In this document: positions 30,251 to 41,443 of the stretch, piece by piece | How the letters are laid out: each line of letters opens with the position of its first letter | How positions within the stretch are numbered: position 1 is the stretch's first letter | Assembly: GCA_963697385.1 (NCBI GenBank) | Contig: CAVONU010000006.1 | Coordinates: 13,424 to 77,423 of the forward strand | DNA length: 64,000 nucleotides | Direction: 5' to 3' | Source of the DNA: an uncultured Acidimicrobiales bacterium | GTDB taxonomy: Bacteria > Actinomycetota > Acidimicrobiia > Acidimicrobiales > CAWCAL01 | Made by a program: the position numbers and the translations under genes | The notes under the pieces: model-generated | The model's input: the letters and a program-made list of their open reading frames with translations, nothing else | Told to the model about the DNA's origin: nothing | The model's database searches: none

Positions 30251-33208
30251 TCAATCGCCCGCGGTGGGCTCCCAGTAGTTGCAGAAGAGGTACGGGGGAA
30301 CTCCCGCGAGCCGTTCGTCGACGATGCTCAGCCCGTCGCGGTCGTCGAAGGCCTGACACAGGCGACGGGCGTGGAGCAGGTTGTGGCCCACCTGCGCCGC
30401 CGGGACGTCGATCGCTCCCTCGACGCCGACCGACGCCCAGACCGATCGGGCCTCGTCCACCCGCCCGTCCTCGAGCAGGAGGACCGCACGCATCGGGGCC
30501 GACCGGCGGAGCAGATCCTGGCTCAGGTTCTCCTGCGCCAGCTCGCGGATCGTCTCGTAGCGGCCGCGCCGGCGCAGCACCTCACACTGCTGCCCGCTGG
30601 TGGGGATCAGCGCATCGGGCTGACCGGTCTCGAGGCCCAGCTCGTATCCCCGGTCGATGACGCGCTGGGCCTCCCGTAGCTCGCCGTGCTGGATCGCCTG
30701 CGCTCCCCGGAGCACCGCCGCGTGCCACTCCAGCACCGGCGCACGGGTGCTCGAGGCGATGGCGTCCGCCTCGTCGACCATCTCCTCGACCTCGTCCCAC
30801 CGGCCCGCCTCACCGGCCGTCGTCGCACGGTGGGCCACGGCCCAGAACCGCGCCCGCGGGTCACCGCCCGCGGTGAGCTCGAGGAGCTCTTCGGTCTCCG
30901 CCAGCCGGTCGGCGATGTTGTCGATCCGGTAGTTGGAGTCCTGGCGGAGGGTGAGGGCGTGGGCGAGGGCGGCCCGGTCGCCGCTCCGACGGGCCAGGTC
31001 CACCGCTTCCTGCGAGAGCGCGGCCAGATCCTCGGACGGCGCGCCGCTGAACACCGACTCGACGGCGAGCGTCGCCGTGAGCTGACTTCGGATCGTGGGT
31101 TCCTGATCCGTCCCGAGCACGCGTTCCAGCGCCGCGATGCGCTCGCCGTCAACCTCCCCTGCTGCGCTGTAGAGGCCCCGGTTGTTGGCCAACGCCGCTT
31201 GCGCCGCCAACGCCGGCTCGTCCGCGCCGAGGCACCGGTCGACCGCATCGAGAAGGGTCTCGCGATAGGCCGGGTCACCACCGAGCAACTGGGCTCGGCC
31301 GATTTCGACCATCAAGGGGTACCGGCGAGTGTCCGTCGGAGGCAGAGCGCCGATGGCCTGCTCGTACCGGCGGGCCGCCTGGCGGTAGGCGAGCTGGCTC
31401 ATCGACTGCTGTGCGGCGCGCTCGCTCCACCGCACCACCTTGTCGGGATCCGCACCGGCTGCGAGACCCTCGACGAAGTGGGACGCCGTGGCCATGGCAT
31501 CCGGATCGGGCATCTGCTCGAGCTGCTCGGCGATCGTCCGGTGCAGCACCGCCAGCTCGAAGCCGTCGTCGGGGGGCATGAGCTCCAGACGGAGGAGGTC
31601 GTGCACGAATTCCAGCTCGCCACCGCCCAGATCCTGGAGCAGGCCGCCCTGCCGCGCTCGTCGCACGGTCGACCCGATGGACGTCGGCGAGCGGTCGACA
31701 ACGTCGGCGAGCAGACGGGCCGGGAACCGCTGGCCGATCACCGCCGCGGCGGTGAGCGCGACGATGTCGTCGTCGCTCAGGCTCGCGAGCCGTTCGGCGA
31801 TGGCGATCGAGAGCTCGGCCGGTAGCGCCCCGCCACCGGCGGCTCCTTCGGCGTCGAGCCAGTCGGGATGCTGCAGGAGGCTGGTGACGAACAGGGCGTT
31901 GCCGCCCGTCCGCTCGGCGAGGCGCGCCGCGGTCTGATCCACCTCCTCCTGACCCAGCGCCGGATCCGCCTCGCGTACGAGCGCCGCGATGTCGGTGCTC
32001 GGGAGCCCGGGGAGGTCGATGCGGAGCACATCGTCGCGACGCCCCACATCCGCGATCAGGGTGGTGAAACCGGCGACGTCGCCCGAGCGGACCACGCCCA
32101 GCACCGTCACACCGGGAGGCCCCTCCGGACCGGCCAGGTGGCGGACGGTCGCCATCGCCGTGTCGTCGGCCCACTGCAGGTCGTCAACCACGAAGGTCAG
32201 TCGATTCGCCTGACCGGCCAGCCGGTCCAACGTCTCAGCGATGCCGTCGAGCAACAGACGCTGGGCTCCGACCCCCTCGACGGGATGGAGGATCTCGCGG
32301 CCCGGTCCACCGAGATCGGGGAGAAGGCGCGAGAGCTCGCGGCCTGCGCTCCCGGCCAGCACACTGCTGCGCACCTCGGGCCGGACGGCGGTCAGGCCCG
32401 ATCGCAGGGCGGCGATGATCGGAGCGTGGCTCGAGCTGGGCTCACGCGGGGCGGCGCCGTACAGCACACGATGGTCGAGCCGGGCGGCCTCGGCAGCGAG
32501 GCGTGCGACCAATCGCGACTTCCCTGCGCCCGACTCACCCGCGACGATGACGAGACGCGGTGGATCCGAGCCGGTCACCGCGTCGACCAGTCGTTTCACC
32601 AGGTCCCCCCGACCCACCCACGGTCGCTGTTCGAGCACCGCCAGTTCGGGGTTGAGGAGGACCTCATCCGCCTCGGTCGACCGTTCCCATTCGACCTCGA
32701 CCGCTTCACTGGGCTGGTCGAGACCCTTCAGTTGCAGGTGGTGCACCGCCCCGAGCGGGTGGTCGACCCGGCCTGCCGCGACGTCGAGGAGGGTCCTCGA
32801 CACGAGGATCGAGCCGTCGGGGGCGGCGTCGCACAGCCGGCTGGCGTGGAAGAACGGCCAACCTCGCAGATCGGTTCCGTCGTGGTGCACCTCACCGATG
32901 GCGACACCGACGCGCACCTCGACCGGCTCCGGATACCGGCGGGACAACCTCTGGGCGGCTCGTTGGATCTCCACGGCCGCGTCCAGCGCTGCGGACGCGA
33001 GGCCGAAGCTGGCGATGTAGCCGTCACCGGTCGACCCCTCGACCGAGCCGCCCAGGGCTTCGACGTTGCGGCGTACGGCGTCGCCGTGCTCGCTGGTCAC
33101 GCGGGTGGCCTCGGCCTCGCCGTGGGTCACGAAGTAGCGGGTCGAGCCCACCTGGTCCATCACGAGGATGGCGGCGATTCTCGGCGCGGTGGTGACTTCG
33201 GGCACCAC
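30251..33208 (-). CDS. class III cyclase-like domain + AAA/STAND ATPase + TPR protein
   Basis: MDQVGST and TGDG cyclase aspartates; Walker A GESGAGKS; Walker B VVDDLQWAD; LEFVHDLLR; TPR-like C-terminus. Confidence 0.88.
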   Translation of the reverse strand: MVPEVTTAPRIAAILVMDQVGSTRYFVTHGEAEATRVTSEHGDAVRRNVEALGGSVEGSTGDGYIASFGLASAALDAAVEIQRAAQRLSRRYPEPVEVRVGVAIGEVHHDGTDLRGWPFFHASRLCDAAPDGSILVSRTLLDVAAGRVDHPLGAVHHLQLKGLDQPSEAVEVEWERSTEADEVLLNPELAVLEQRPWVGRGDLVKRLVDAVTGSDPPRLVIVAGESGAGKSRLVARLAAEAARLDHRVLYGAAPREPSSSHAPIIAALRSGLTAVRPEVRSSVLAGSAGRELSRLLPDLGGPGREILHPVEGVGAQRLLLDGIAETLDRLAGQANRLTFVVDDLQWADDTAMATVRHLAGPEGPPGVTVLGVVRSGDVAGFTTLIADVGRRDDVLRIDLPGLPSTDIAALVREADPALGQEEVDQTAARLAERTGGNALFVTSLLQHPDWLDAEGAAGGGALPAELSIAIAERLASLSDDDIVALTAAAVIGQRFPARLLADVVDRSPTSIGSTVRRARQGGLLQDLGGGELEFVHDLLRLELMPPDDGFELAVLHRTIAEQLEQMPDPDAMATASHFVEGLAAGADPDKVVRWSERAAQQSMSQLAYRQAARRYEQAIGALPPTDTRRYPLMVEIGRAQLLGGDPAYRETLLDAVDRCLGADEPALAAQAALANNRGLYSAAGEVDGERIAALERVLGTDQEPTIRSQLTATLAVESVFSGAPSEDLAALSQEAVDLARRSGDRAALAHALTLRQDSNYRIDNIADRLAETEELLELTAGGDPRARFWAVAHRATTAGEAGRWDEVEEMVDEADAIASSTRAPVLEWHAAVLRGAQAIQHGELREAQRVIDRGYELGLETGQPDALIPTSGQQCEVLRRRGRYETIRELAQENLSQDLLRRSAPMRAVLLLEDGRVDEARSVWASVGVEGAIDVPAAQVGHNLLHARRLCQAFDDRDGLSIVDERLAGVPPYLFCNYWEPTAGD

Positions 33209-33328: not shown

Positions 33329-34570
33329 GTGCCGACGACGACGGCCACGCCAGGGACCGGTCGGAGCCTGCTGGCCGAGACCGACGCCGTCGCGGCCATG
33401 ACCGAACCCGTCGCCCGCAACCGGCGAATCACCCAGCTCTACCACGAGCTCGAGGTGGCCATGGCCGACGTGTTCGGATCCGACGACCTTTCGTGGTGTG
33501 CCTACGGGGTCTGGGCCTCACGGCAGGTCGGCGAAGCGATGCAGGGGTTGCCGACCGACCACGTGCGCGGACTCCTCGATGATCCGGCGTTCATCCCGGG
33601 ACTGGCGCTGCCCCCCGATCTGGATCGGTGGGCCCGACGCCTGGCCCCGGTCGCCCGCCGGGTTCCCGACTCGGCGCTCGCCGCCCTCCTCGATGCCCTC
33701 CGGCCCCATCTCGCCGAGGCGCTGGGTCGGGGCAACCACCGGGTGTTCACCGAGCTGGCGCCCACCTTCGCCGGTTTCCTCGATCTGATGCACGACACCG
33801 ACGGTGATGTGGACGCGGTCGAGGCCGGCCTCCCCGACCTGTACCAGCGCCTCGGTCACGTGACCTTCCCGGACGGAGCGGGGTACGAGTTGACCGTCCT
33901 CTGCGACTGCTATCTGCGGGCCATGCGCAGCACCGATCGCCACGAGCGAGCGCAGCTCATCTTCTACGGGAACCTCCGCGGAGCGCACTACGAGCAGCAG
34001 CGGGTCCAGCGTCCCCTCGAAGAGGTCACCGACGTGATCCTCGAGCTCCCCGCCTCGGCTGTCGGCCGGGGCGGGGCCGTCGGTTCCGCCCTCGGCCTCC
34101 TCGATCGGGCGGCGCCGCGCACCACCCATCGCCTCCGCCACACCGTGGGCGCCGTCATCGGCAACACGGTCACCGACATCGCGGTCCGGGTGAACACGCC
34201 GGTCGACGACCTGGCCGTCGGCGACGCTCTGCAGATCGACGGGGCGGGCGCCTCCTACCCGCCGGACCTTCGGGAGCTCGATCTGCCCGAGTTCGAGCGA
34301 TTCCTCCGACATCCCGACGATTGGATGAGCCTCGGCACCGAACCCGAACGGGAGATTCGGGTGGACAACTGGGTGAACTACCACGAGCGGATGCCGTTCA
34401 TCGCCCACGTGATGCGCATGCGCCAGCAGTCCACCGAGTTGCGGCAGCCGCCGTTCCCGGCCGCCGTTCCCGAGCACCGGGGCGACGACTCAGAAGCCGC
34501 GGAGGTGGTCGAGCTCGACCTGCGCGGCGACGGCGTCACCGACCTCAGCGAGCTCGTCGACCCTCGGTAG
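33329..34570 (+). CDS. conserved hypothetical protein, DUF2515-like
   Basis: RNRRITQLYHEL...WCAYGVWASRQVG; GNHRVFTEL; NLRGAHYEQQRVQ; W...ERMPFIA. GTG at 33329 after AGGGG. Confidence 0.65.
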   Translation: MPTTTATPGTGRSLLAETDAVAAMTEPVARNRRITQLYHELEVAMADVFGSDDLSWCAYGVWASRQVGEAMQGLPTDHVRGLLDDPAFIPGLALPPDLDRWARRLAPVARRVPDSALAALLDALRPHLAEALGRGNHRVFTELAPTFAGFLDLMHDTDGDVDAVEAGLPDLYQRLGHVTFPDGAGYELTVLCDCYLRAMRSTDRHERAQLIFYGNLRGAHYEQQRVQRPLEEVTDVILELPASAVGRGGAVGSALGLLDRAAPRTTHRLRHTVGAVIGNTVTDIAVRVNTPVDDLAVGDALQIDGAGASYPPDLRELDLPEFERFLRHPDDWMSLGTEPEREIRVDNWVNYHERMPFIAHVMRMRQQSTELRQPPFPAAVPEHRGDDSEAAEVVELDLRGDGVTDLSELVDPR

Positions 34571-35665
34571 TCGGTCACGGCGGCGCAGATCAGCGCCGTA
34601 TCCGTGCCCGACGCCCAGCCGTCGCAGCGCCTTGTCGCTCAGGTGGTCGTTGTATCGGACGTACGAGAACAGAGGACCGGCGGCTGCTGGGGATCCGGCA
34701 TCCGCCCCCGCCAGCTCGAGATCGACGGTCGGCGCGGCCCAACGAACGTCGCCCAGCACGCGGCACAACACGTCCTCCCGAACGCTGGTGTGCGCCAGCG
34801 CCGACTCCAGCTCCTCTCGGGTCGTGAGGTGAGCAGGCACCGGTCGGCGGCGGCGGCGCCGGTCGGCGGTGGGTATGTGCTCGGCCACTCCGGACCCGAC
34901 CGAGACGAGGAGGAGACGGTCGGGTCCGCTCGCCCACTCCATCCGGTACGAGGGCAGGGTCGCCATCAGCGCCAGTTGCAGCGCCATGTTGGTCATGCCG
35001 CCACCGGCTCCGTCGGCGAAGTCGTTGGCCGTGGCGGAACGCGCCATCAACGGTAACCGGACGGCCTCGAACCGTCGGGGCTCCGCCAGCGCGGCCCGGA
35101 CCAGCCCCCACAGCGGGAACCCGAGGTTGGAACCGACCGGATCGCGGTTGAAGGTGGCCTCGGGGTTCGAGGACAGCCGCCAGGGTGAGTCGGTGGTCAG
35201 GTTGTGCAGACCGAGGAGGAGGTGGCAGTCCGTCACGGCGTGCACGTCGCCGAGGGTCATCGGCCCGTCGGTGGTTCCGAACCACTGGCGGAGCAGCCGT
35301 TCGAGATCATCGGAACGAAGGGTCGAGCCCGGTCGCCGACTGGCGGCCAGCGCCAACGGACCGTTCGCCAGGACCCACCCGATGACACCCCGCCGCCGGA
35401 AGATCACCGGGGCTGACACCTTCAGCCGGCGCTCGATCTCGGCCATCGAGTGACCGGTCGCGATGAGTGCCGCGACCAGGCCGCCGGAGTTGGTTCCGGC
35501 GACGTAGTCGAACCAGGTCCCCAGCGTCAGGCCGGCGTCGCGGGTGTGACGGCGCAGTTCGGTCTCGATTCGGCGAAGGATGCGCAGCGAAAGGTAGATC
35601 CGGGTGCCATCACCGTCGATGGAGAGGAGGCGGTGGGTCGCCGGCTGCTCCTCGACAACCGTCAA
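34490..35665 (-). CDS. patatin-like phospholipase homolog with degenerate catalytic motifs
   Basis: LLSIDGDGTRI (usual DGGGxRG), FDYVAGTNSGG (usual GTSTGG), TTDSPWRLSSNP, DGAG, LVSVGSG, YVRYN, C-terminal ..HLRGF. TTG start overlaps the upstream stop (TTGA). Confidence 0.8.
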   Translation of the reverse strand: MTVVEEQPATHRLLSIDGDGTRIYLSLRILRRIETELRRHTRDAGLTLGTWFDYVAGTNSGGLVAALIATGHSMAEIERRLKVSAPVIFRRRGVIGWVLANGPLALAASRRPGSTLRSDDLERLLRQWFGTTDGPMTLGDVHAVTDCHLLLGLHNLTTDSPWRLSSNPEATFNRDPVGSNLGFPLWGLVRAALAEPRRFEAVRLPLMARSATANDFADGAGGGMTNMALQLALMATLPSYRMEWASGPDRLLLVSVGSGVAEHIPTADRRRRRRPVPAHLTTREELESALAHTSVREDVLCRVLGDVRWAAPTVDLELAGADAGSPAAAGPLFSYVRYNDHLSDKALRRLGVGHGYGADLRRRDRLPRVDELAEVGDAVAAQVELDHLRGF

Positions 35666-36912
35666 CGGGGGGCCGTCCTCGCTCGCACCGCCGAACGACC
35701 CCGCACCTTCACCTCTCGCGCCCGGGTGCGGGCCGGCCCGGTTCGGATCCGCCAGTCCTGGGCCACCGTGGTGGGAAGGAAGAAGGCGGGCTGCCCCTCG
35801 ACGTACCGGTCGATGTACGCGGTGAGGGTCGCCCGACCGACCCGGCGGAAGAACCAGCGACCGGCTCCCGAGTCGCGCACCGGGTCGAGGAGCCGGTTCA
35901 CCGTCCGCTGGGCCTCGAAGATCCGGAACGCCCGGGTGGAGGGTTCCGGGGCCTCGAGGAATCGCGGCACCTGGGCCAGGTCGATCGAGTCCTGATAGCC
36001 CTGGAAGAGCCACCAGATCATGCTGGCCGGTACCCGTCGCATCCCGAGCGGCGCGAATTCCTCCATCTCCTCCAGGAGCGCGTCGAGGAGCCGCACCCCG
36101 GCTTCGGACGGGCCGATGTGCCGTTCCCACATCAGTGGGGCCAGCTGATCCATGTCGTCGGCATCGAGGGGCAGGTACCGCTCGTCGACCCCCAAGAGTG
36201 CCGCGACCACACTCCAGGCGTAGGCGTGGGCGTCGCGCTCGTACCGGTCCAGCGAGATTCCGAACCGATCCAGGCCCAGCCAGGCGATGTAGGTGAACGC
36301 CAGGACGGTCCCCAGCATGGCGTCCTGGCTCAGCGGTTCACCGAGCTCGTCGAAGTCCCAGGTCCGCGCGTCCTCCTCACCGGCCCGTGCTCGCTCGTCC
36401 TCGGCTCGGATGAGGGCGCGCACCATCGCGTGGATCAGCCGCACTCCCTGGCACGACGCATACCCGCGCGTGCCGGGCTCGAGCGTCGCCGGCTCCTCGA
36501 ATCCCATCACGTCGATCATCATCTGACCGGTCTCGGCCACGCGCCGGTTGAGGCTGCCGGTCGCCAGGTCCGAGGTCCGAGCCAGCGCCTCGGCGCCGTC
36601 CACCACCGCATAGCTCACCGGGAGTGACGCGAAATAGAGCGAGGTGGCGATCTCCAGCCCGTAGCGAGCGAACACCCGCTGGCCCTGCGTCAGGAGATCG
36701 GCCCGCCGCAACGCGGGGCCGAGCGTCGGCCGGGGCAGCATCGCCGCCACCTCGGGCGCGGTCGTCGGGTCGTACATGTCCTTGCGGACCTGGATGATGA
36801 GCCCCCGAAGGTCGAGCTCGGGATGACGTTCCTGGTAGTGCTCGGCGATGGCGTCGGCCTCGGGGTCGGCCTTCGCCTTCAGCTCATCGAGTACTGCGTG
36901 CGTCCACTCCAT
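35662..36912 (-). CDS. oxygenase MpaB / DUF2236 (rubber-oxygenase-like heme fold), cytoplasmic
   Basis: LYFASLPVSY, RRVAETGQMM.DV, VRLIHAMVR (heme-ligand His), PLSQDAMLGT, WSVVAALLGV. No signal peptide. Confidence 0.85.
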   Translation of the reverse strand: MEWTHAVLDELKAKADPEADAIAEHYQERHPELDLRGLIIQVRKDMYDPTTAPEVAAMLPRPTLGPALRRADLLTQGQRVFARYGLEIATSLYFASLPVSYAVVDGAEALARTSDLATGSLNRRVAETGQMMIDVMGFEEPATLEPGTRGYASCQGVRLIHAMVRALIRAEDERARAGEEDARTWDFDELGEPLSQDAMLGTVLAFTYIAWLGLDRFGISLDRYERDAHAYAWSVVAALLGVDERYLPLDADDMDQLAPLMWERHIGPSEAGVRLLDALLEEMEEFAPLGMRRVPASMIWWLFQGYQDSIDLAQVPRFLEAPEPSTRAFRIFEAQRTVNRLLDPVRDSGAGRWFFRRVGRATLTAYIDRYVEGQPAFFLPTTVAQDWRIRTGPARTRAREVKVRGRSAVRARTAPR

Positions 36913-36993: not shown

Positions 36994-38310
36994 GTGACCG
37001 GCGTCTTCATCTCCTACCGGCGCAGCGACACGGCGGGATGGGCGGGGCGTCTGGCCGATCACCTGAAGTCGGCGTTCGGCGACGAGCGGGTGTTCATCGA
37101 CGTCAGCGACATCGACCCCGGTGACGACTTCGAGCACGCCATCGACGCCATGCTCGATCGCGTCGACGCCGTCGTCGTCATGATCGGGCCCGAGTGGACC
37201 ACCGTCGAGGACGACCGCGGACTCCGGTTGGCCCGGCAGGACGACCATGTCCGTCGTGAGGTGGCCGACGCACTGCGGTCGGACGTGCGGGTCCTTCCGG
37301 TCCTCGTCGACGGAGCTGTCATGCCGGGCGCCGACCAGTTGCCAGAGGACCTCCAACCGCTGACCAGGAAGAACGCCATCGCGGTGTCGGGCACCGGCTT
37401 CCGCTCGGACCTGGACCAGATCGTCCGGATGCTGCGCCGCGAGCTGCCCTGGTACGCACGCCCGCCCCGCAAGCTCGCCATCGCCGGCGCCCTCGCCCTG
37501 CTGGTGATCGCCGCGCTGGTCGGGCTGGTGGTGGCCCTGAGCGGCGACGACCAGACGAGCGGTGACGCCGTCGCCGGAGCCAAGCCGGGTGGCGAGGCGT
37601 CGGTCGAGGAGTCGACGACCACCAGCAGGAGCACCAGCACGAGCTCGACGACCGCTCCGGTCGGATCGGCGATCGTGGTCACGTCCACGTTGGCAGGCAA
37701 CACCACAGGACAACGCATCGAGTGGATCGTGCCGGAGGAGTCCGTGGACGAGGCCTCCGAGGTTCAGCGCGATGACCCGACAGAGTTCGGTGCGCTGGCA
37801 CGTGATCGGGGCTGGGTGGCCACGAGCTTCAGCTCGGACGAGTCGCTCACCGTCGTGTCGGTCATCCAGGGGACCCCCCGCCTCGCTGACGAGAACCTCT
37901 CCGTCGCCGTCACCGGCTTCCGGATCGAGGTGCTCGACGCCACCACACCCGCCGCGGGTGCAGTTGTCGACCGAGGGCCACCTCTGCCCCTGACCGACGA
38001 CTTCCGCATCGACGCCAAGGTGCTCCTTCCCCCGTCGGTCGAGGTCCCGCCTCGCGTGGACCTCGAGGTCGATGGCGAACCGGTGGAAGTGCTCAGGCCG
38101 TTCAGCCTCAGCGCTACGGACAGCTTCTTCCTGACGATCGAAGTCGACACCAGCCAGTGCACCTGCACCTGGCTGGGCGAGATGGACGTCCTGCTGGCCG
38201 GCCAGCTCCACACGTATCCCATCGTCGACGAGGAAGGCGAGCCGTTCATCACGAGTGGCTGGGACAACGTCACCGGAGTCGTCGAGCCGGCCCCACCGCC
38301 CGAGAGCTGA
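36994..38310 (+). CDS. TIR domain - single TM - extracellular domain protein
   Basis: VFISYRRSD box 1, VFIDV..I.PGDDF, HVRREV (catalytic Glu), VLPVLVDGA.MP; TM LAIAGALALLVIAALVGLVVAL; S/T-rich stalk; beta-rich ectodomain with CTC. Confidence 0.9.
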   Translation: MTGVFISYRRSDTAGWAGRLADHLKSAFGDERVFIDVSDIDPGDDFEHAIDAMLDRVDAVVVMIGPEWTTVEDDRGLRLARQDDHVRREVADALRSDVRVLPVLVDGAVMPGADQLPEDLQPLTRKNAIAVSGTGFRSDLDQIVRMLRRELPWYARPPRKLAIAGALALLVIAALVGLVVALSGDDQTSGDAVAGAKPGGEASVEESTTTSRSTSTSSTTAPVGSAIVVTSTLAGNTTGQRIEWIVPEESVDEASEVQRDDPTEFGALARDRGWVATSFSSDESLTVVSVIQGTPRLADENLSVAVTGFRIEVLDATTPAAGAVVDRGPPLPLTDDFRIDAKVLLPPSVEVPPRVDLEVDGEPVEVLRPFSLSATDSFFLTIEVDTSQCTCTWLGEMDVLLAGQLHTYPIVDEEGEPFITSGWDNVTGVVEPAPPPES

Positions 38311-38311
38311 C

Positions 38312-39988
38312 GTGCCGCGCCGCCTCCATCTCGCCCGCGCCGTCTTCCTCGGCATCGCAGTGGCTGCCGCCGTCCTCGGCTGGGTGGGCATACGCGAGCA
38401 CATCCTGTCCGAACAGGGGGATGCCAGCACCGCGAACATCGCCTACGGGGTGGTCACGCTGTTCGTGGCACCGAGCCTGCGCTCGACCGGCGAGATCTCG
38501 CTGGCGCTGCGCGTCGCACAGATCGCCGCCCTCGCCGCCACCGGCTTCGTCGCGTTCGACTTGTTCCGCGCCACACTCCTGGACCGCTGTCGACAGCTCA
38601 GGATGGGGCGACGGACCGGCCACGTCGCCGTGGTCGGCGTCGGTGAGACCGGGTCCCTGCTGGCCTCCCAACTGGTGGAGACGGGCGAACCGGTCGTCGC
38701 CGGAATCGACGCCGCCCCCGACCATCGAGCGAAGGACCTCTTCGACCGACCCGGGTGGGCGCTGTTCGCCGGCGACGCCACCAACCCGGCCGTTCTCGAG
38801 CGGTCCAGCATCGCGGACGCCCGGACCGTCTACGTCGCCACCGGGCACGACGGAACGGACGTCTCGGTCACCCGGCAGCTGCGGAAGCTGATGGAGTCCG
38901 GGACCCGTACGCCGCCCCCGCGCATCAGGGTGCAGATCGACTCACCGGATCTGTGCCGCAGGCTGGAACAGGAGGAGCTGGCGAACCCGGCCGCGTCGCC
39001 GGTGGAGGTCGAATACATCAACCACCTCCAGCTGGCCGCCTCGGCCGTGCTCGAACACGTCTCCGAGCACCTCGCTCGGGTCTGTGGGGTCGGACCCCAC
39101 GCGGAGCTGGCCGACCGCCTGGTCCTGGTGGGGAGCTCGCGGCTCCTGCGGGAGATCCTCTCCCTCGTCGGACGAGGCCACCGGGCCCGCACCCTGATGG
39201 GGGTCGCCACCACGTTCGCCGTCGAGCCGACCGGGGTCCTGACCGATCCACCGTCAACGGCGGAGCCGGCGACCCCGGACGGTCCGACCGTTCCCGGGGT
39301 CGTGGTCGTCCAGACCGACGACCCCCAGGAGACCATCGCCACGGCCGTCGACGTCTCCCGCACCCACCCCGGCTACCACGTCTTCGCGCTGACGCCGATG
39401 GCGGGTCCGCCGATCGTCACGACCGCGCGCGACGACGTGGGTCCGGTCGTCATCGTCGACCCCGAACGACTGGTGCAGTCTCCCGACGTGCTCTCGGCCG
39501 GGACCGTCGAGCTGATGGCCCGCCTGATCCACCTCGACTACCTCGTCTCCCAGGGGGTCGACAGCGGTGCGGCCCCTGACCCCGCGTCGCCCGCGAAGAG
39601 GCCCTGGGCGGAGCTGTCCCCGGCGTTCAGGGAGGCCAACCGGGATCAGGCCCGCGACGTCGGGCGCAAGGTCGAGGCCGTCGGCTGCGTGCTCAGCGAG
39701 ACGCGTCGGGAACCCGCCGTACTCACCGACGACGAGATCGAGCAACTGGCGCGGATGGAACACGAGCGCTGGTCCGACGAGCGCCGCCGGGCCGGATGGA
39801 CGTGGGCCGAAACGCGCCATGACGAGGCGAGGACCCACCCCGACCTCCGCCCGTACGATGAGCTCGACGAGGAGGCGAAGGAGAAGGACCGACGGGCCGT
39901 GAGGAGGATGCACGTCCTGTCCGCGTTCCTGGGTCTGATCATCGTCCGCCGTCAGCCAGCCGAGACCACCGGCACCGGGGCCGGCTGA
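38312..39988 (+). CDS. two-TM + TrkA-N (RCK) + RyR-repeat domain protein
   Basis: Two N-terminal hydrophobic helices; HVAVVGVGETG Rossmann motif, GDAT; C-terminal PWAELSPAFREANRDQA...LARMEHERW...GW...HPDLRPYDELDEEAKEKDR (RyR repeat). Starts 1 nt after the TIR stop. Confidence 0.88.
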   Translation: MPRRLHLARAVFLGIAVAAAVLGWVGIREHILSEQGDASTANIAYGVVTLFVAPSLRSTGEISLALRVAQIAALAATGFVAFDLFRATLLDRCRQLRMGRRTGHVAVVGVGETGSLLASQLVETGEPVVAGIDAAPDHRAKDLFDRPGWALFAGDATNPAVLERSSIADARTVYVATGHDGTDVSVTRQLRKLMESGTRTPPPRIRVQIDSPDLCRRLEQEELANPAASPVEVEYINHLQLAASAVLEHVSEHLARVCGVGPHAELADRLVLVGSSRLLREILSLVGRGHRARTLMGVATTFAVEPTGVLTDPPSTAEPATPDGPTVPGVVVVQTDDPQETIATAVDVSRTHPGYHVFALTPMAGPPIVTTARDDVGPVVIVDPERLVQSPDVLSAGTVELMARLIHLDYLVSQGVDSGAAPDPASPAKRPWAELSPAFREANRDQARDVGRKVEAVGCVLSETRREPAVLTDDEIEQLARMEHERWSDERRRAGWTWAETRHDEARTHPDLRPYDELDEEAKEKDRRAVRRMHVLSAFLGLIIVRRQPAETTGTGAG

Positions 39989-40027: not shown

Positions 40028-40777
40028 TCAACCCGTCTCCGCCCCGAGGATCCGCTCCTCGACCCGACGCAGCTGGTCGCCGGCGTCCACCCCGACCTCG
40101 CTCAGCGCCCGGTCCAGCCGGTGGCAGGCGCGTAGGGCGTCCACGCGGCGCTCGCTGCGGAGGAGCGCCTCGATGAGCAGATACCAGAGGTGCTCCCGAT
40201 AGGGATGCTCCTCGACCGCGCTCTCCAGCTCGGCCACCACGATCTCGTAGTTGCCGAGCGCCAGCTCCGCCTCCATCTCCAGCTCCATCACCCCGACGCG
40301 CAGCTCCTCCAGGCGTTGCGCCTCGAGTCGGAACGTCTCGTCGTCGTACAGATCCCCGAACGGATCGCCGCGCCAGAGCGCCAGGGCCTCCCGGCAGAGC
40401 GCCTGGCAGCGCTCCGGCTCCGAGCGGAACTCGGTGGCGCGGAGCAGCAGGTCCTCGAATCGCAGCGCGTCGATCTGATCGCGTCGCACCGCGAGGCGGT
40501 AGGCATGATCGACGTGCTCCAACACCTCGCCCCCGATCACGTGACGGACCCGGGAGACGTAGGTCTGCAGCGAGTTGTCCGCCGACCTGGGCGGCGAGTC
40601 ACCCCAGAGTCCCGCCCGCAGCCGGTCGATCGACACGGCCCGACCCGCACCCAGAACCAGCATGCCGAGCAGGGCGCGGCAGTGACGACTCCCGATCGGT
40701 TGGGCGCCAGTTTCGGTCAGCAGATCGATCGGTCCCAGTACCCGGATGACATCGTCGCGCCGCATCGTCGTATCCAA
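40028..40777 (-). CDS. SARP/AfsR-type regulator (wHTH + BTAD only)
   Basis: VLGPIDL, LWGDSPPRSADNSLQTYVSRVR, ALALWRGDPF, HPYREHLWYLLIEAL. Confidence 0.9.
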   Translation of the reverse strand: MDTTMRRDDVIRVLGPIDLLTETGAQPIGSRHCRALLGMLVLGAGRAVSIDRLRAGLWGDSPPRSADNSLQTYVSRVRHVIGGEVLEHVDHAYRLAVRRDQIDALRFEDLLLRATEFRSEPERCQALCREALALWRGDPFGDLYDDETFRLEAQRLEELRVGVMELEMEAELALGNYEIVVAELESAVEEHPYREHLWYLLIEALLRSERRVDALRACHRLDRALSEVGVDAGDQLRRVEERILGAETG

Positions 40778-40936
40778 TCCTCGACCCGATCGTGCTCCCC
40801 CGCGATCCGTTCAGCCAGGGTCCAACGTCAGTTCAGCGACCCGCACGCGCCCATGGTTCGAGCCACGCGGCGGGGTCAAGGTCAGCAGCGCAGACTGAAG
40901 CCGAGAGAGAAGGACAGAGAGAGGAAAGGAGTGAAG

Positions 40937-41443
40937 ATGTCAAAGCTGCTCGAACGACCAGAAGAACAGCTCTCCACCGAGAGCGACACCTTGGTGCACG
41001 AGGCTCCGAAGCGGACCGAGCTTCCCCCCACGGCACCCTTGGCGCCCGAGACGCCCCCGCAGCGCCGGCCGATCCGCTGGATGCGCTGGCTCGCCGTCTT
41101 CGTCGTCCTCATCGTCGGTGCCGCCACCGTGGCGGTGCTGGTGACCCGAGATGACGGATCCGAGCTTGCGACGCGGGCGACCCCCCGCAGCGCCCTCAAC
41201 GGCGAAGTCTGGGCCGAGCCCGTGACGCGGCCGACCCCCCGCAGCGCCCTCAACGGCGAAGTCTGGGCCGAGCCCGTGACGCGGCCGACCCCCCGCAGCG
41301 CCCTCAACGGCGAAGTCTGGGCCGAGCCCGTGACGCGGCCGACCCCCCGCAGCGCCGTCAACGGCGAGGTCTGGGCCGAGGTCGACACGAACACGCCGAT
41401 CAGCGCCGTCGGTGGCGAGGTGTGGAGCGAATCCACCTCGTGA
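40937..41443 (+). CDS. single-TM protein with C-terminal 18-aa tandem repeats
   Basis: AGGAAAGGAG RBS; TM WLAVFVVLIVGAATVAVLV; repeats TPRSALNGEVWAEPVTRP. Confidence 0.75.
   Translation: MSKLLERPEEQLSTESDTLVHEAPKRTELPPTAPLAPETPPQRRPIRWMRWLAVFVVLIVGAATVAVLVTRDDGSELATRATPRSALNGEVWAEPVTRPTPRSALNGEVWAEPVTRPTPRSALNGEVWAEPVTRPTPRSAVNGEVWAEVDTNTPISAVGGEVWSESTS
41178..41439 (+). repeat. 54-bp coding tandem repeat: 3 perfect copies plus 2 degenerate
   Basis: Units start at 41178, 41232, 41286 and 41340; in frame with no spacers. Confidence 0.95.

Follow-up and report, generated by a model that had tools for sequence, protein, structure and literature searches.

The subject of this analysis is a stretch of 64,000 nucleotides (the window) from an uncultured bacterium of the order Acidimicrobiales, taken from contig CAVONU010000006.1 of GenBank assembly GCA_963697385.1 (positions 13,424 to 77,423, forward strand), and within it a gene for a protein with an N-terminal TIR domain, a single transmembrane (TM) helix, a stalk rich in serine and threonine (S/T) and a C-terminal domain predicted to lie outside the cell (the ectodomain). 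This gene is followed at once by a second one, encoding a membrane protein with a TrkA_N (RCK/Rossmann) and an RyR domain. The features of the locus are collected in Table 1.

The TIR-TM-ectodomain gene

The open reading frame (ORF) of the TIR gene begins with GTG, encodes 438 amino acids (aa) and ends with TGA at 38308-38310. The start codon is credible, because the related proteins begin alike: MTGVFISYRR in the window, MAGVFISYRR in P0002, a full-length relative with 44 % identity, and MTGIFISYRR in the syntenic orthologue at locus L001. No N-terminal signal peptide is present in the window protein, whose TIR domain already begins at residue 4.

A first-pass annotation of this DNA, made from the letters without database searches, had described a TIR domain with a conserved Glu (VRRE), one TM segment, an S/T stalk and a beta-rich ectodomain of about 200 aa ending CTCTW...IVDEEGEPFITSG, and all of these elements were recovered. 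The sole hydrophobic segment of the protein peaks at residues 162-181 and is flanked by RRELPWYARPPRK on the N-terminal side and by SGDDQTSGD on the C-terminal side; six positive charges thus stand immediately before the helix and acidic residues immediately after it. By the positive-inside rule this charge pattern gives an N-in/C-out orientation, and the window protein is therefore predicted to be a type II single-pass membrane protein with its C-terminus outside. The stalk that follows the TM helix, ESTTTSRSTSTSSTTAP, is the least conserved region (38 % identity to P0002).

The whole architecture is kept in both P0002 and L001, and given this conservation we regard it as more than a chance arrangement. 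The TIR domain is 89 % identical to that of L001 and 63 % identical to that of P0002, while for the ectodomain the values are 65 % and 32-51 %, respectively. An ectodomain which diverges faster than the TIR domain fits the expectation for a sensor. In L001 (ena:ERZ25039514:contig_63701) the TIR-ectodomain gene, a patatin-like gene and upstream genes are each split into two gene calls, most likely by indel errors in the assembly rather than as real pseudogenes. The 266-aa protein P0003, which has no TIR domain, was considered as a free ectodomain and rejected: it is the 3' half of the frameshift-split L001 orthologue, on a contig with several split genes.

The TIR domain matches Pfam TIR_2 (PF13676) over residues 4-121 with E=9.6e-16 (58.8 bits, cut-off 28). 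Among solved structures, the only relatives at E<0.01 are the TIR domains of SARM1 and of Caenorhabditis elegans TIR-1 (best E=3e-8, residues 3-147), and no solved bacterial TIR was found at that threshold. The window TIR and SARM1 have the FISYRR box in common, and E89 of the VRRE motif (residues 86-89) aligns with the Glu of SARM1 WVHKE, the catalytic or ligand-binding residue numbered E75 by Toshchakov and Neuwald (PMC7075850). In the 99 nearest homologues from a collection of 5.8 billion proteins, S7, Y8, R9, R10, D36, D84 and E89 are invariant (99/99) and G43 nearly so, and the window TIR has all seven of these residues as well as G43. It is thus plausible that the domain is of the catalytic type, and an NADase output, which the first-pass annotation had assumed, is what we infer from this likeness. 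The only other TIR_2 match in the source genome lies on a different contig (G000:C4:1024448-1024735), in an open frame of 1106 aa.

Table 1 Features of the locus, with positions counted from the first nucleotide of the window
Feature	Position	Strand	Basis
Whole TIR - TM - S/T stalk - ectodomain gene	36994..38310	+	ORF list; P0002 relative and L001 syntenic orthologue
Predicted cytoplasmic SARM1-like TIR domain, residues 4-150	37003..37443	+	Pfam TIR_2; SARM1/TIR-1 structures
Glu89 codon (VRRE), putative catalytic Glu	37258..37260	+	Aligned with SARM1 WVHKE Glu
Predicted single TM helix, residues about 160-183	37471..37542	+	Kyte-Doolittle 19-mer peak 2.88
S/T-rich low-complexity stalk, residues 184-222	37543..37659	+	Read directly from the sequence
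Ectodomain, residues 223-438: small alpha/beta N-terminal part and beta-sandwich core	37660..38307	+	AlphaFold2 model, family homology
C389-x-C391-x-W393 signature	38158..38172	+	W invariant, both Cys in 18/19 members of alignment A3
G415-x-P417-F418 signature	38236..38247	+	Invariant in alignments A1-A3
Coupled partner gene, TM - TrkA_N (RCK/Rossmann) - RyR	38312..39988	+	Pfam TrkA_N 7e-14, RyR 1.5e-15
Patatin-like gene, divergent neighbouring operon	34490..36130	-	Pfam Patatin below cut-off; PADLOC phospholipase effector 3.8e-18

The ectodomain family and its cytoplasmic partners

The ectodomain comprises about 215 aa and was modelled with AlphaFold2 from a 19-sequence family alignment (residues 224-436, pLDDT 87.5, pTM 0.83). 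The modelled domain is mostly beta, with two short helices close to its N-terminus. CTCTW is found at residues 389-393 and IVDEEGEPFITSG at residues 410-422, and in alignment A3 the invariant positions are W170, G192, P194 and F195. It has no Pfam match, NCBIfam scans of all family members were also blank, and a family-profile search of the PDB sequences gave no match. When the confident model was searched with Foldseek, neither PDB nor BFVD (viral structures) yielded a match at E<=1e-3. The best fold matches are generic Ig/ApaG-like beta-sandwiches, among them ApaG, the GH123 N-domain and transglutaminase Ig domains, to none of which the domain is assigned. By these searches the ectodomain is a previously undescribed family.

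Relatives were found by sequence. When the ectodomain alone was searched exhaustively with phmmer against 1.84 billion representatives, 16 proteins were obtained, the orthologue fragment P0003 and the full-length relative P0002 among them, and members of the family outside the orthologues had E values from 1e-11 to 7e-5. Several matches are short TM-anchored proteins (E=2.5e-7 to 7e-5) with a brief N-terminus, a TM helix and a domain ending CDCTW...IIDDxGxPFRTT. In the metagenomic protein P0102 (805 aa), a CHAT domain (caspase-like protease) and PG_binding_1 precede the TM helix and the same ectodomain, giving the module a third kind of output. A subsequent profile search with the ectodomain reached a named Streptomyces protein, P0119, which carries HTH_31.

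In a sample of 400 actinobacterial genomes, the ectodomain was found in 15, ten of which belong to one genus (g47) with genomes of 7.5-10 Mb and up to five paralogues each; the full-length identity of 64 % between P0119 and a g47 ORF shows this expanded genus to be Streptomyces. Eighteen of the 25 ORFs extracted have HTH_31, one TM helix, a low-complexity linker and the ectodomain, and the remainder are short TM-anchored forms. The first-pass annotation had likened the ending of the window protein to the extracellular domain of Streptomyces XRE-HTH-TM regulators (CDC.W...IDD.G.PF.TSG). A non-circular comparison with hhalign, in which a profile of the three TIR-fused domains only was aligned to a profile of 13 HTH-fused Streptomyces domains only, gave a probability of 96.1 % and E=3e-9 over 144 aligned columns, bearing out the resemblance. 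We conclude from the profiles that the TIR-fused ectodomain and the C-terminal domain of the Streptomyces HTH_31(XRE)-TM proteins are homologous. The neighbourhoods of the Streptomyces paralogues (1.5-kb flanks) gave no functional hint, the sole recurrent neighbour reflecting orthologous synteny within one paralogue lineage.

Collecting the N-terminal domains fused to this one ectodomain family gave four cytoplasmic partners, HTH_31, TIR, CHAT with PG_binding_1, and a short tail, which supports the earlier proposal of a swappable sensor module. The fusions also bear on topology. HTH_31 must be cytoplasmic and a single TM helix intervenes, and the ectodomain is therefore expected outside the cell, in agreement with the charge pattern of the window protein. 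Nearly every complete family member has a predicted TM helix ahead of the domain, the exceptions being L019 and the weak match L017, in which none reached the threshold.

The fusion of a TIR domain to this ectodomain is rare, being found in the window gene, its L001 orthologue and P0002. While the ectodomain itself is new, the overall plan of TIR, TM helix and C-terminal domain is common in this subfamily: 53 of the 99 nearest TIR homologues begin with a TIR domain and have exactly one predicted TM helix, with at least 80 residues following it. Pfam domains among these homologues include PASTA, PG_binding_1, FGE-sulfatase, NHL, TolB/PD40 and CHASE2. Kaur et al. (PMC8195603, PMC7159879) mention in general terms conflict-system effectors with variable extracellular C-termini, e.g. 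CHASE2. Our literature search found no description or test of TIR-TM-ectodomain receptors, of TIR combined with PknH, or of bacterial TIR proteins with periplasmic or sensor domains, and no paper characterising the Streptomyces HTH_31-TM-ectodomain (membrane XRE) proteins.

Two independent Cys pairs occur in the ectodomain family (A3 columns 40, 143, 220 and 222). Streptomyces P0119 retains only the first pair and the TIR-fused proteins only the CxC pair. Disulfides between the CxC and the other two Cys of the family were considered and rejected, as the pairs are lost independently of one another. It is possible that the CxC stands alone as a redox or metal site.

The RyR-domain partner and other neighbouring genes

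The GTG of the partner gene lies one nucleotide beyond the TGA of the TIR gene, and the spacing in L001 is identical. On this arrangement we take the TIR gene to be translationally coupled to the TM-TrkA_N-RyR gene. In the partner's RyR domain, H, W, H and D stand at offsets 0, +3, +25 and +42 (HERW...THPD...EKDR), which is the spacing of the contact residues H75, W78, H100 and D117 of the phage protein RyDEP. Through these residues phage RyR-domain (PF02026) proteins bind or cleave 2'/3' isomers of cyclic ADP-ribose (cADPR) made by TIR enzymes, and the residues are conserved in the R12 domains of animal RyR (10.64898/2026.05.28.727677). The partner RyR domain thus looks able to bind ADP-ribose (ADPR) signals made by a TIR domain.

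The association of the two domains is not confined to this locus. PF02026 is present in 13 other genomes of the 400-genome sample, and nine of these, which represent five GTDB families, have a TIR_2 match no more than 10 kb away from the RyR match (about 1 kb or less in four). The expectation by chance is 0.11 genomes (P ~1e-7, with families counted as independent units). In G178 (L036, genus g82) a TIR-TM-PknH_C gene abuts the gene of a 4TM-RyR protein with a 0-nt junction, and the pair in G243 is also closely spaced. The RyR-linked TIR-TM protein of G308 has a 224-aa C-terminus of no assigned family, a TIR-TPR gene follows an RyR-AAA gene in G397, and in G139 a TIR-nSTAND1-WD40 gene is convergent with the RyR gene; a TIR frame of 1,414 aa in G069 suggests that the protein there is also of the G139 type. 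PknH_C (PF14032), by Pfam's own name an extracellular domain, follows the TM helix in the G178 protein, which supports the outside placement of the ectodomain at the equivalent position in the window protein.

Throughout genus g82 (L036, L039, L041) a 4TM-RyR protein of 780-800 aa is always accompanied by an adjacent TIR gene, and the sensor part of the TIR protein varies by species, being TM-PknH_C, nSTAND1-WD40 or a 935-aa protein. That the RyR protein stays constant within one genus while the TIR sensor part is exchanged is what one would expect if the one protein makes a signal and the other is the effector for it. On a 7-Mb actinobacterial chromosome, an RyR-only frame of 119 aa, i.e. RyDEP-sized, was seen beside a 748-aa TIR protein (L037, G317:C1:3712952-3714404). 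The ectodomain and the RyR domain were both absent from all 20 genomes of the same order in the 400-genome sample, and the TIR-RyR pair is therefore accessory, even though the region does not stand out in its base composition.

The patatin-like gene lies upstream, in a divergent operon. Its product also matches NCBIfam CBASS_lipase (5e-12, below the cut-off), has DGDG where DGGG is usual, and carries an N-terminal extension of about 160 aa. It is possibly a further component of the system. In two other loci (L046, 515-4966, and L047, 1341-5041), an intact patatin gene (GTSTG) accompanies two to three paralogous genes of the type TIR(ISYRR)-TM-variable C-terminus; these resemble arrays of receptors that share a phospholipase as partner, and one or more of them come from a different phylum (Steroidobacteraceae). 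In L044 (5001-6820) the gene of P0013, a TIR protein of the same subfamily, shares one base with a SLATT-domain gene, and an intact patatin gene lies 2 kb away; SLATT proteins are the effectors of type VII Thoeris and are gated by cADPR (10.64898/2025.12.03.692087). P0013 was rejected as a single-pass relative paired with SLATT, since it is polytopic with seven TM helices, and it informs only on the partners of the subfamily. P0059, from Pseudonocardia, could be traced to no contig.

Two further neighbours were noted. The gene at 30251-33208 (minus strand) encodes 985 aa with an N-terminal region resembling class III nucleotide cyclases (LipJ-type match) and an AAA_16 STAND-like ATPase, and a 958-aa AAA_16 protein occupies the equivalent position in L001. 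The ORF at 40190..41443 (plus strand), directly downstream of a BTAD/SARP regulator gene, contains four tandem units of about 18 aa (RPTPRSALNGEVWAEPVT) after a TM helix, at about 41100-41443.

Proposed outside-in signalling, its alternatives and known systems

We propose, with a probability of about one half, that the window protein is an outside-in TIR signalling receptor, with a cytoplasmic SARM1-like TIR domain and, outside the cell on an S/T stalk, a beta-sandwich of a new family. An extracytoplasmic cue would shift the oligomeric state of the ectodomain and TM helix, and the TIR domains would thereby be brought together, which is the general mode of activation of TIR enzymes. The assembled TIR would cleave or cyclise NAD+ to an ADP-ribose-type messenger, which the RyR domain of the co-translated partner would read, leading to altered ion flux across the membrane or altered membrane integrity, and the neighbouring patatin-like protein may also take part. 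The full pathway, from an outside cue through a SARM1-like membrane TIR and a cADPR-type messenger to an RyR-gated channel-like protein, is put forward more tentatively, as one possible course of events. The biological role could be defence against phage or in other conflicts, or a response to the envelope or the environment.

Several observations weigh against this proposal. The operon pairing of exactly this gene is known from one close relative, L001, only, as the contig of P0002 ends at the gene, and the single-TM relatives P0017, P0077, P0050 and P0004 (the last on a short contig) have no recognisable partner. The residue at -4 to the Glu, which corresponds to the ligand-contacting W in WxxxE (numbered W71 in PMC7075850) and to Trp in SARM1, is His85 in the window protein and Arg in P0002; F, Y or W stands there in 79 of the 99 homologues and His in two, so that the window TIR lacks the aromatic ligand contact of catalytic TIR domains. 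The SARM1 BB-loop motif EKLEAG is SDIDPG in the window TIR. The Glu itself is not proof of catalysis, since over 70 % of TIR domains overall have it, including those of the non-enzymatic TLR1/2/6/10 (PMC7075850). The Thoeris models of PADLOC and NCBIfam match only about 65 residues of the protein, far under their cut-offs (Thoeris_type3_ThcB4, 40.7 bits against a cut-off of 220; ThsB1, residues 4-69 only, E=1.9e-7). The ectodomain has no closer fold match than the generic beta-sandwiches mentioned above, and the local patatin-like protein, with GTNSG for GxSxG, lacks the canonical nucleophile position and may be non-catalytic.

A different use of the same enzyme is conceivable, although we find it doubtful. 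Clustering driven from outside, or proteolytic release, could turn the TIR domain into a stand-alone suicide NADase which depletes bulk NAD+ and arrests the cell, as with SARM1 or TIR-STING. The RyR neighbour would then be functionally separate, or else only a modulator or antidote degrading ADPR-type products. The closest relative of the window TIR, SARM1, is indeed an NAD+-depleting enzyme, several of the single-TM relatives stand alone with no effector-like neighbour, and RyR-domain proteins can degrade or sponge cADPR isomers rather than sense them (10.64898/2026.05.28.727677). A membrane tether also restrains the NADase TIR of the amoeba protein TirC (PMC13142454). The coupling to the RyR gene over a single nucleotide, together with the phylum-wide adjacency of TIR and RyR with swapped sensor parts, argues instead for a functional pair, and the partner, large, membrane-bound and equipped with an RCK domain, is no small soluble sponge.

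The ectodomain might also not be a ligand sensor at all. It could serve for anchoring, cell-wall binding or oligomerisation, activation coming from the cytoplasm, e.g. from a phage protein or from a metabolite acting on the TIR or RCK domain. That no ligand-binding family could be assigned, that in many family members the cytoplasmic part is just a short tail lacking an output domain, and that P0102 joins the domain to PG_binding_1 would all be in line with such a function. Its repeated connection to outputs that depend on an input, namely TIR, CHAT and, in Streptomyces families with several paralogues, HTH_31, its faster divergence compared to the TIR domain and the presence of PknH_C, a recognised sensor domain, at the equivalent position in the G178 protein make this explanation unlikely.

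Least probable, and in our view quite unlikely, is a non-catalytic scaffold TIR as in animal Toll-like receptors and adaptors, assembling with itself, the RyR protein or the nearby STAND ATPase and giving no nucleotide signal, for although the residue at -4, the altered BB loop and the limited diagnostic value of the Glu would suit it, the protein retains all seven residues that are invariant in the subfamily, the Glu and the SYRR box among them, and the partners of this class (RyR, SLATT, patatin) belong to the kinds of protein which nucleotide signals act upon. To our knowledge, the bacterial TIR domains characterised so far are enzymes, which also counts against a scaffold.

What is new in the outside-in receptor proposed here is an ectodomain family not described before, the fusion of this family to a SARM1-like TIR, which is rare, and its place in a recurrent pairing of TIR and RyR genes with a presumed extracytoplasmic input. 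A large class of one-TM TIR proteins with a variable outer domain would mean that bacterial TIR chemistry reports events at the envelope or outside the cell, possibly phage adsorption, wall damage or molecules derived from neighbours or the environment. The locus provides a compact two-gene test case, a receptor and an RyR-domain membrane partner. The ligand of the ectodomain could be approached in genetically tractable Streptomyces, where the output of the HTH regulators that carry the domain can be read as transcription.

Of the known systems, Thoeris, in which a ThsB TIR sensor works with a signal-gated effector (types I-XI; Yirmiya et al., 10.64898/2025.12.03.692087), resembles the locus in placing a TIR protein with a variable part beside a protein with a domain for ADPR-derived nucleotides, a function which is putative for the RyR domain of the window. 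In the SLATT and TM-DUF6650 types the effector is also membrane-associated (10.64898/2025.12.03.692087). Of the Thoeris-like features, adjacency and recurrence of TIR and RyR are seen and the RyR contact residues are present, and the partner is a candidate effector. However, the window TIR is membrane-anchored with an extracytoplasmic domain and its input is presumed to lie outside, whereas in the papers covered here the Thoeris-type TIR sensor proteins are not described as membrane receptors and 'RyR' is absent from the main text of the paper on the Thoeris types (10.64898/2025.12.03.692087). The phage RyDEP and the RyR R12 domains (10.64898/2026.05.28.727677) share the spacing of the H, W, H and D contacts with the window partner, but RyDEP itself is small and soluble and, as an enzyme or sponge of phage origin, counters Thoeris, while the RyR domain of the window forms the C-terminus of a host membrane protein with RCK.

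The TIR-TM-PknH_C protein of g82 (L036) has the same three-part plan and an RyR partner. It differs in its ectodomain (PF14032), in the opposite gene order and in a partner with no TrkA_N. The Streptomyces HTH_31(XRE)-TM-ectodomain proteins, a subset of the ToxR/CadC-class transmembrane regulators (PMC10269533), carry the homologous ectodomain after one TM helix and a low-complexity stalk. Their output is a DNA-binding HTH and they usually have four Cys in two pairs, in contrast to the TIR output and the single CxC pair of the window protein. No Pfam HTH domain was matched in the window protein, such domains being carried only by its Streptomyces ectodomain relatives. If our proposal is correct, the sensor ectodomain would represent a new family which in Streptomyces is wired to transcription factors.

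The first-pass annotation had spoken of a Toll-like receptor architecture, and the likeness holds in part. Animal Toll-like and IL-1 receptors (TLR and IL-1R) are also single-pass proteins with an extracellular sensor and a cytoplasmic TIR domain (PMC7075850). The topology is inverted, though, with an N-terminal TIR (type II) in the window protein and a C-terminal one (type I) in the receptors, the ectodomain is unrelated to theirs, Pfam matching in it neither LRR nor Ig such as would place the window protein in these families, and the TIR is of the enzyme-like SARM1 type, theirs of the scaffold type. The resemblance is convergent, an analogy with no common receptor ancestry. SARM1 itself, an animal NAD+ hydrolase and cADPR producer and the best and only solved sequence relative of the TIR domain, has the FISYRR box and the catalytic Glu in common with it, whereas ARM and SAM domains are absent from the window protein, which carries His in place of Trp638 and possesses a membrane anchor and an ectodomain. 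A SARM1-like TIR beside an RyR-domain protein bears on the evolutionary origin of cADPR-RyR signalling. If the outside-in pathway is correct, the locus would provide a prokaryotic counterpart both of receptor-type TIR signalling with the topology of TLR and IL-1R and of the animal axis that leads from SARM1 and CD38 through cADPR to the ryanodine receptor.

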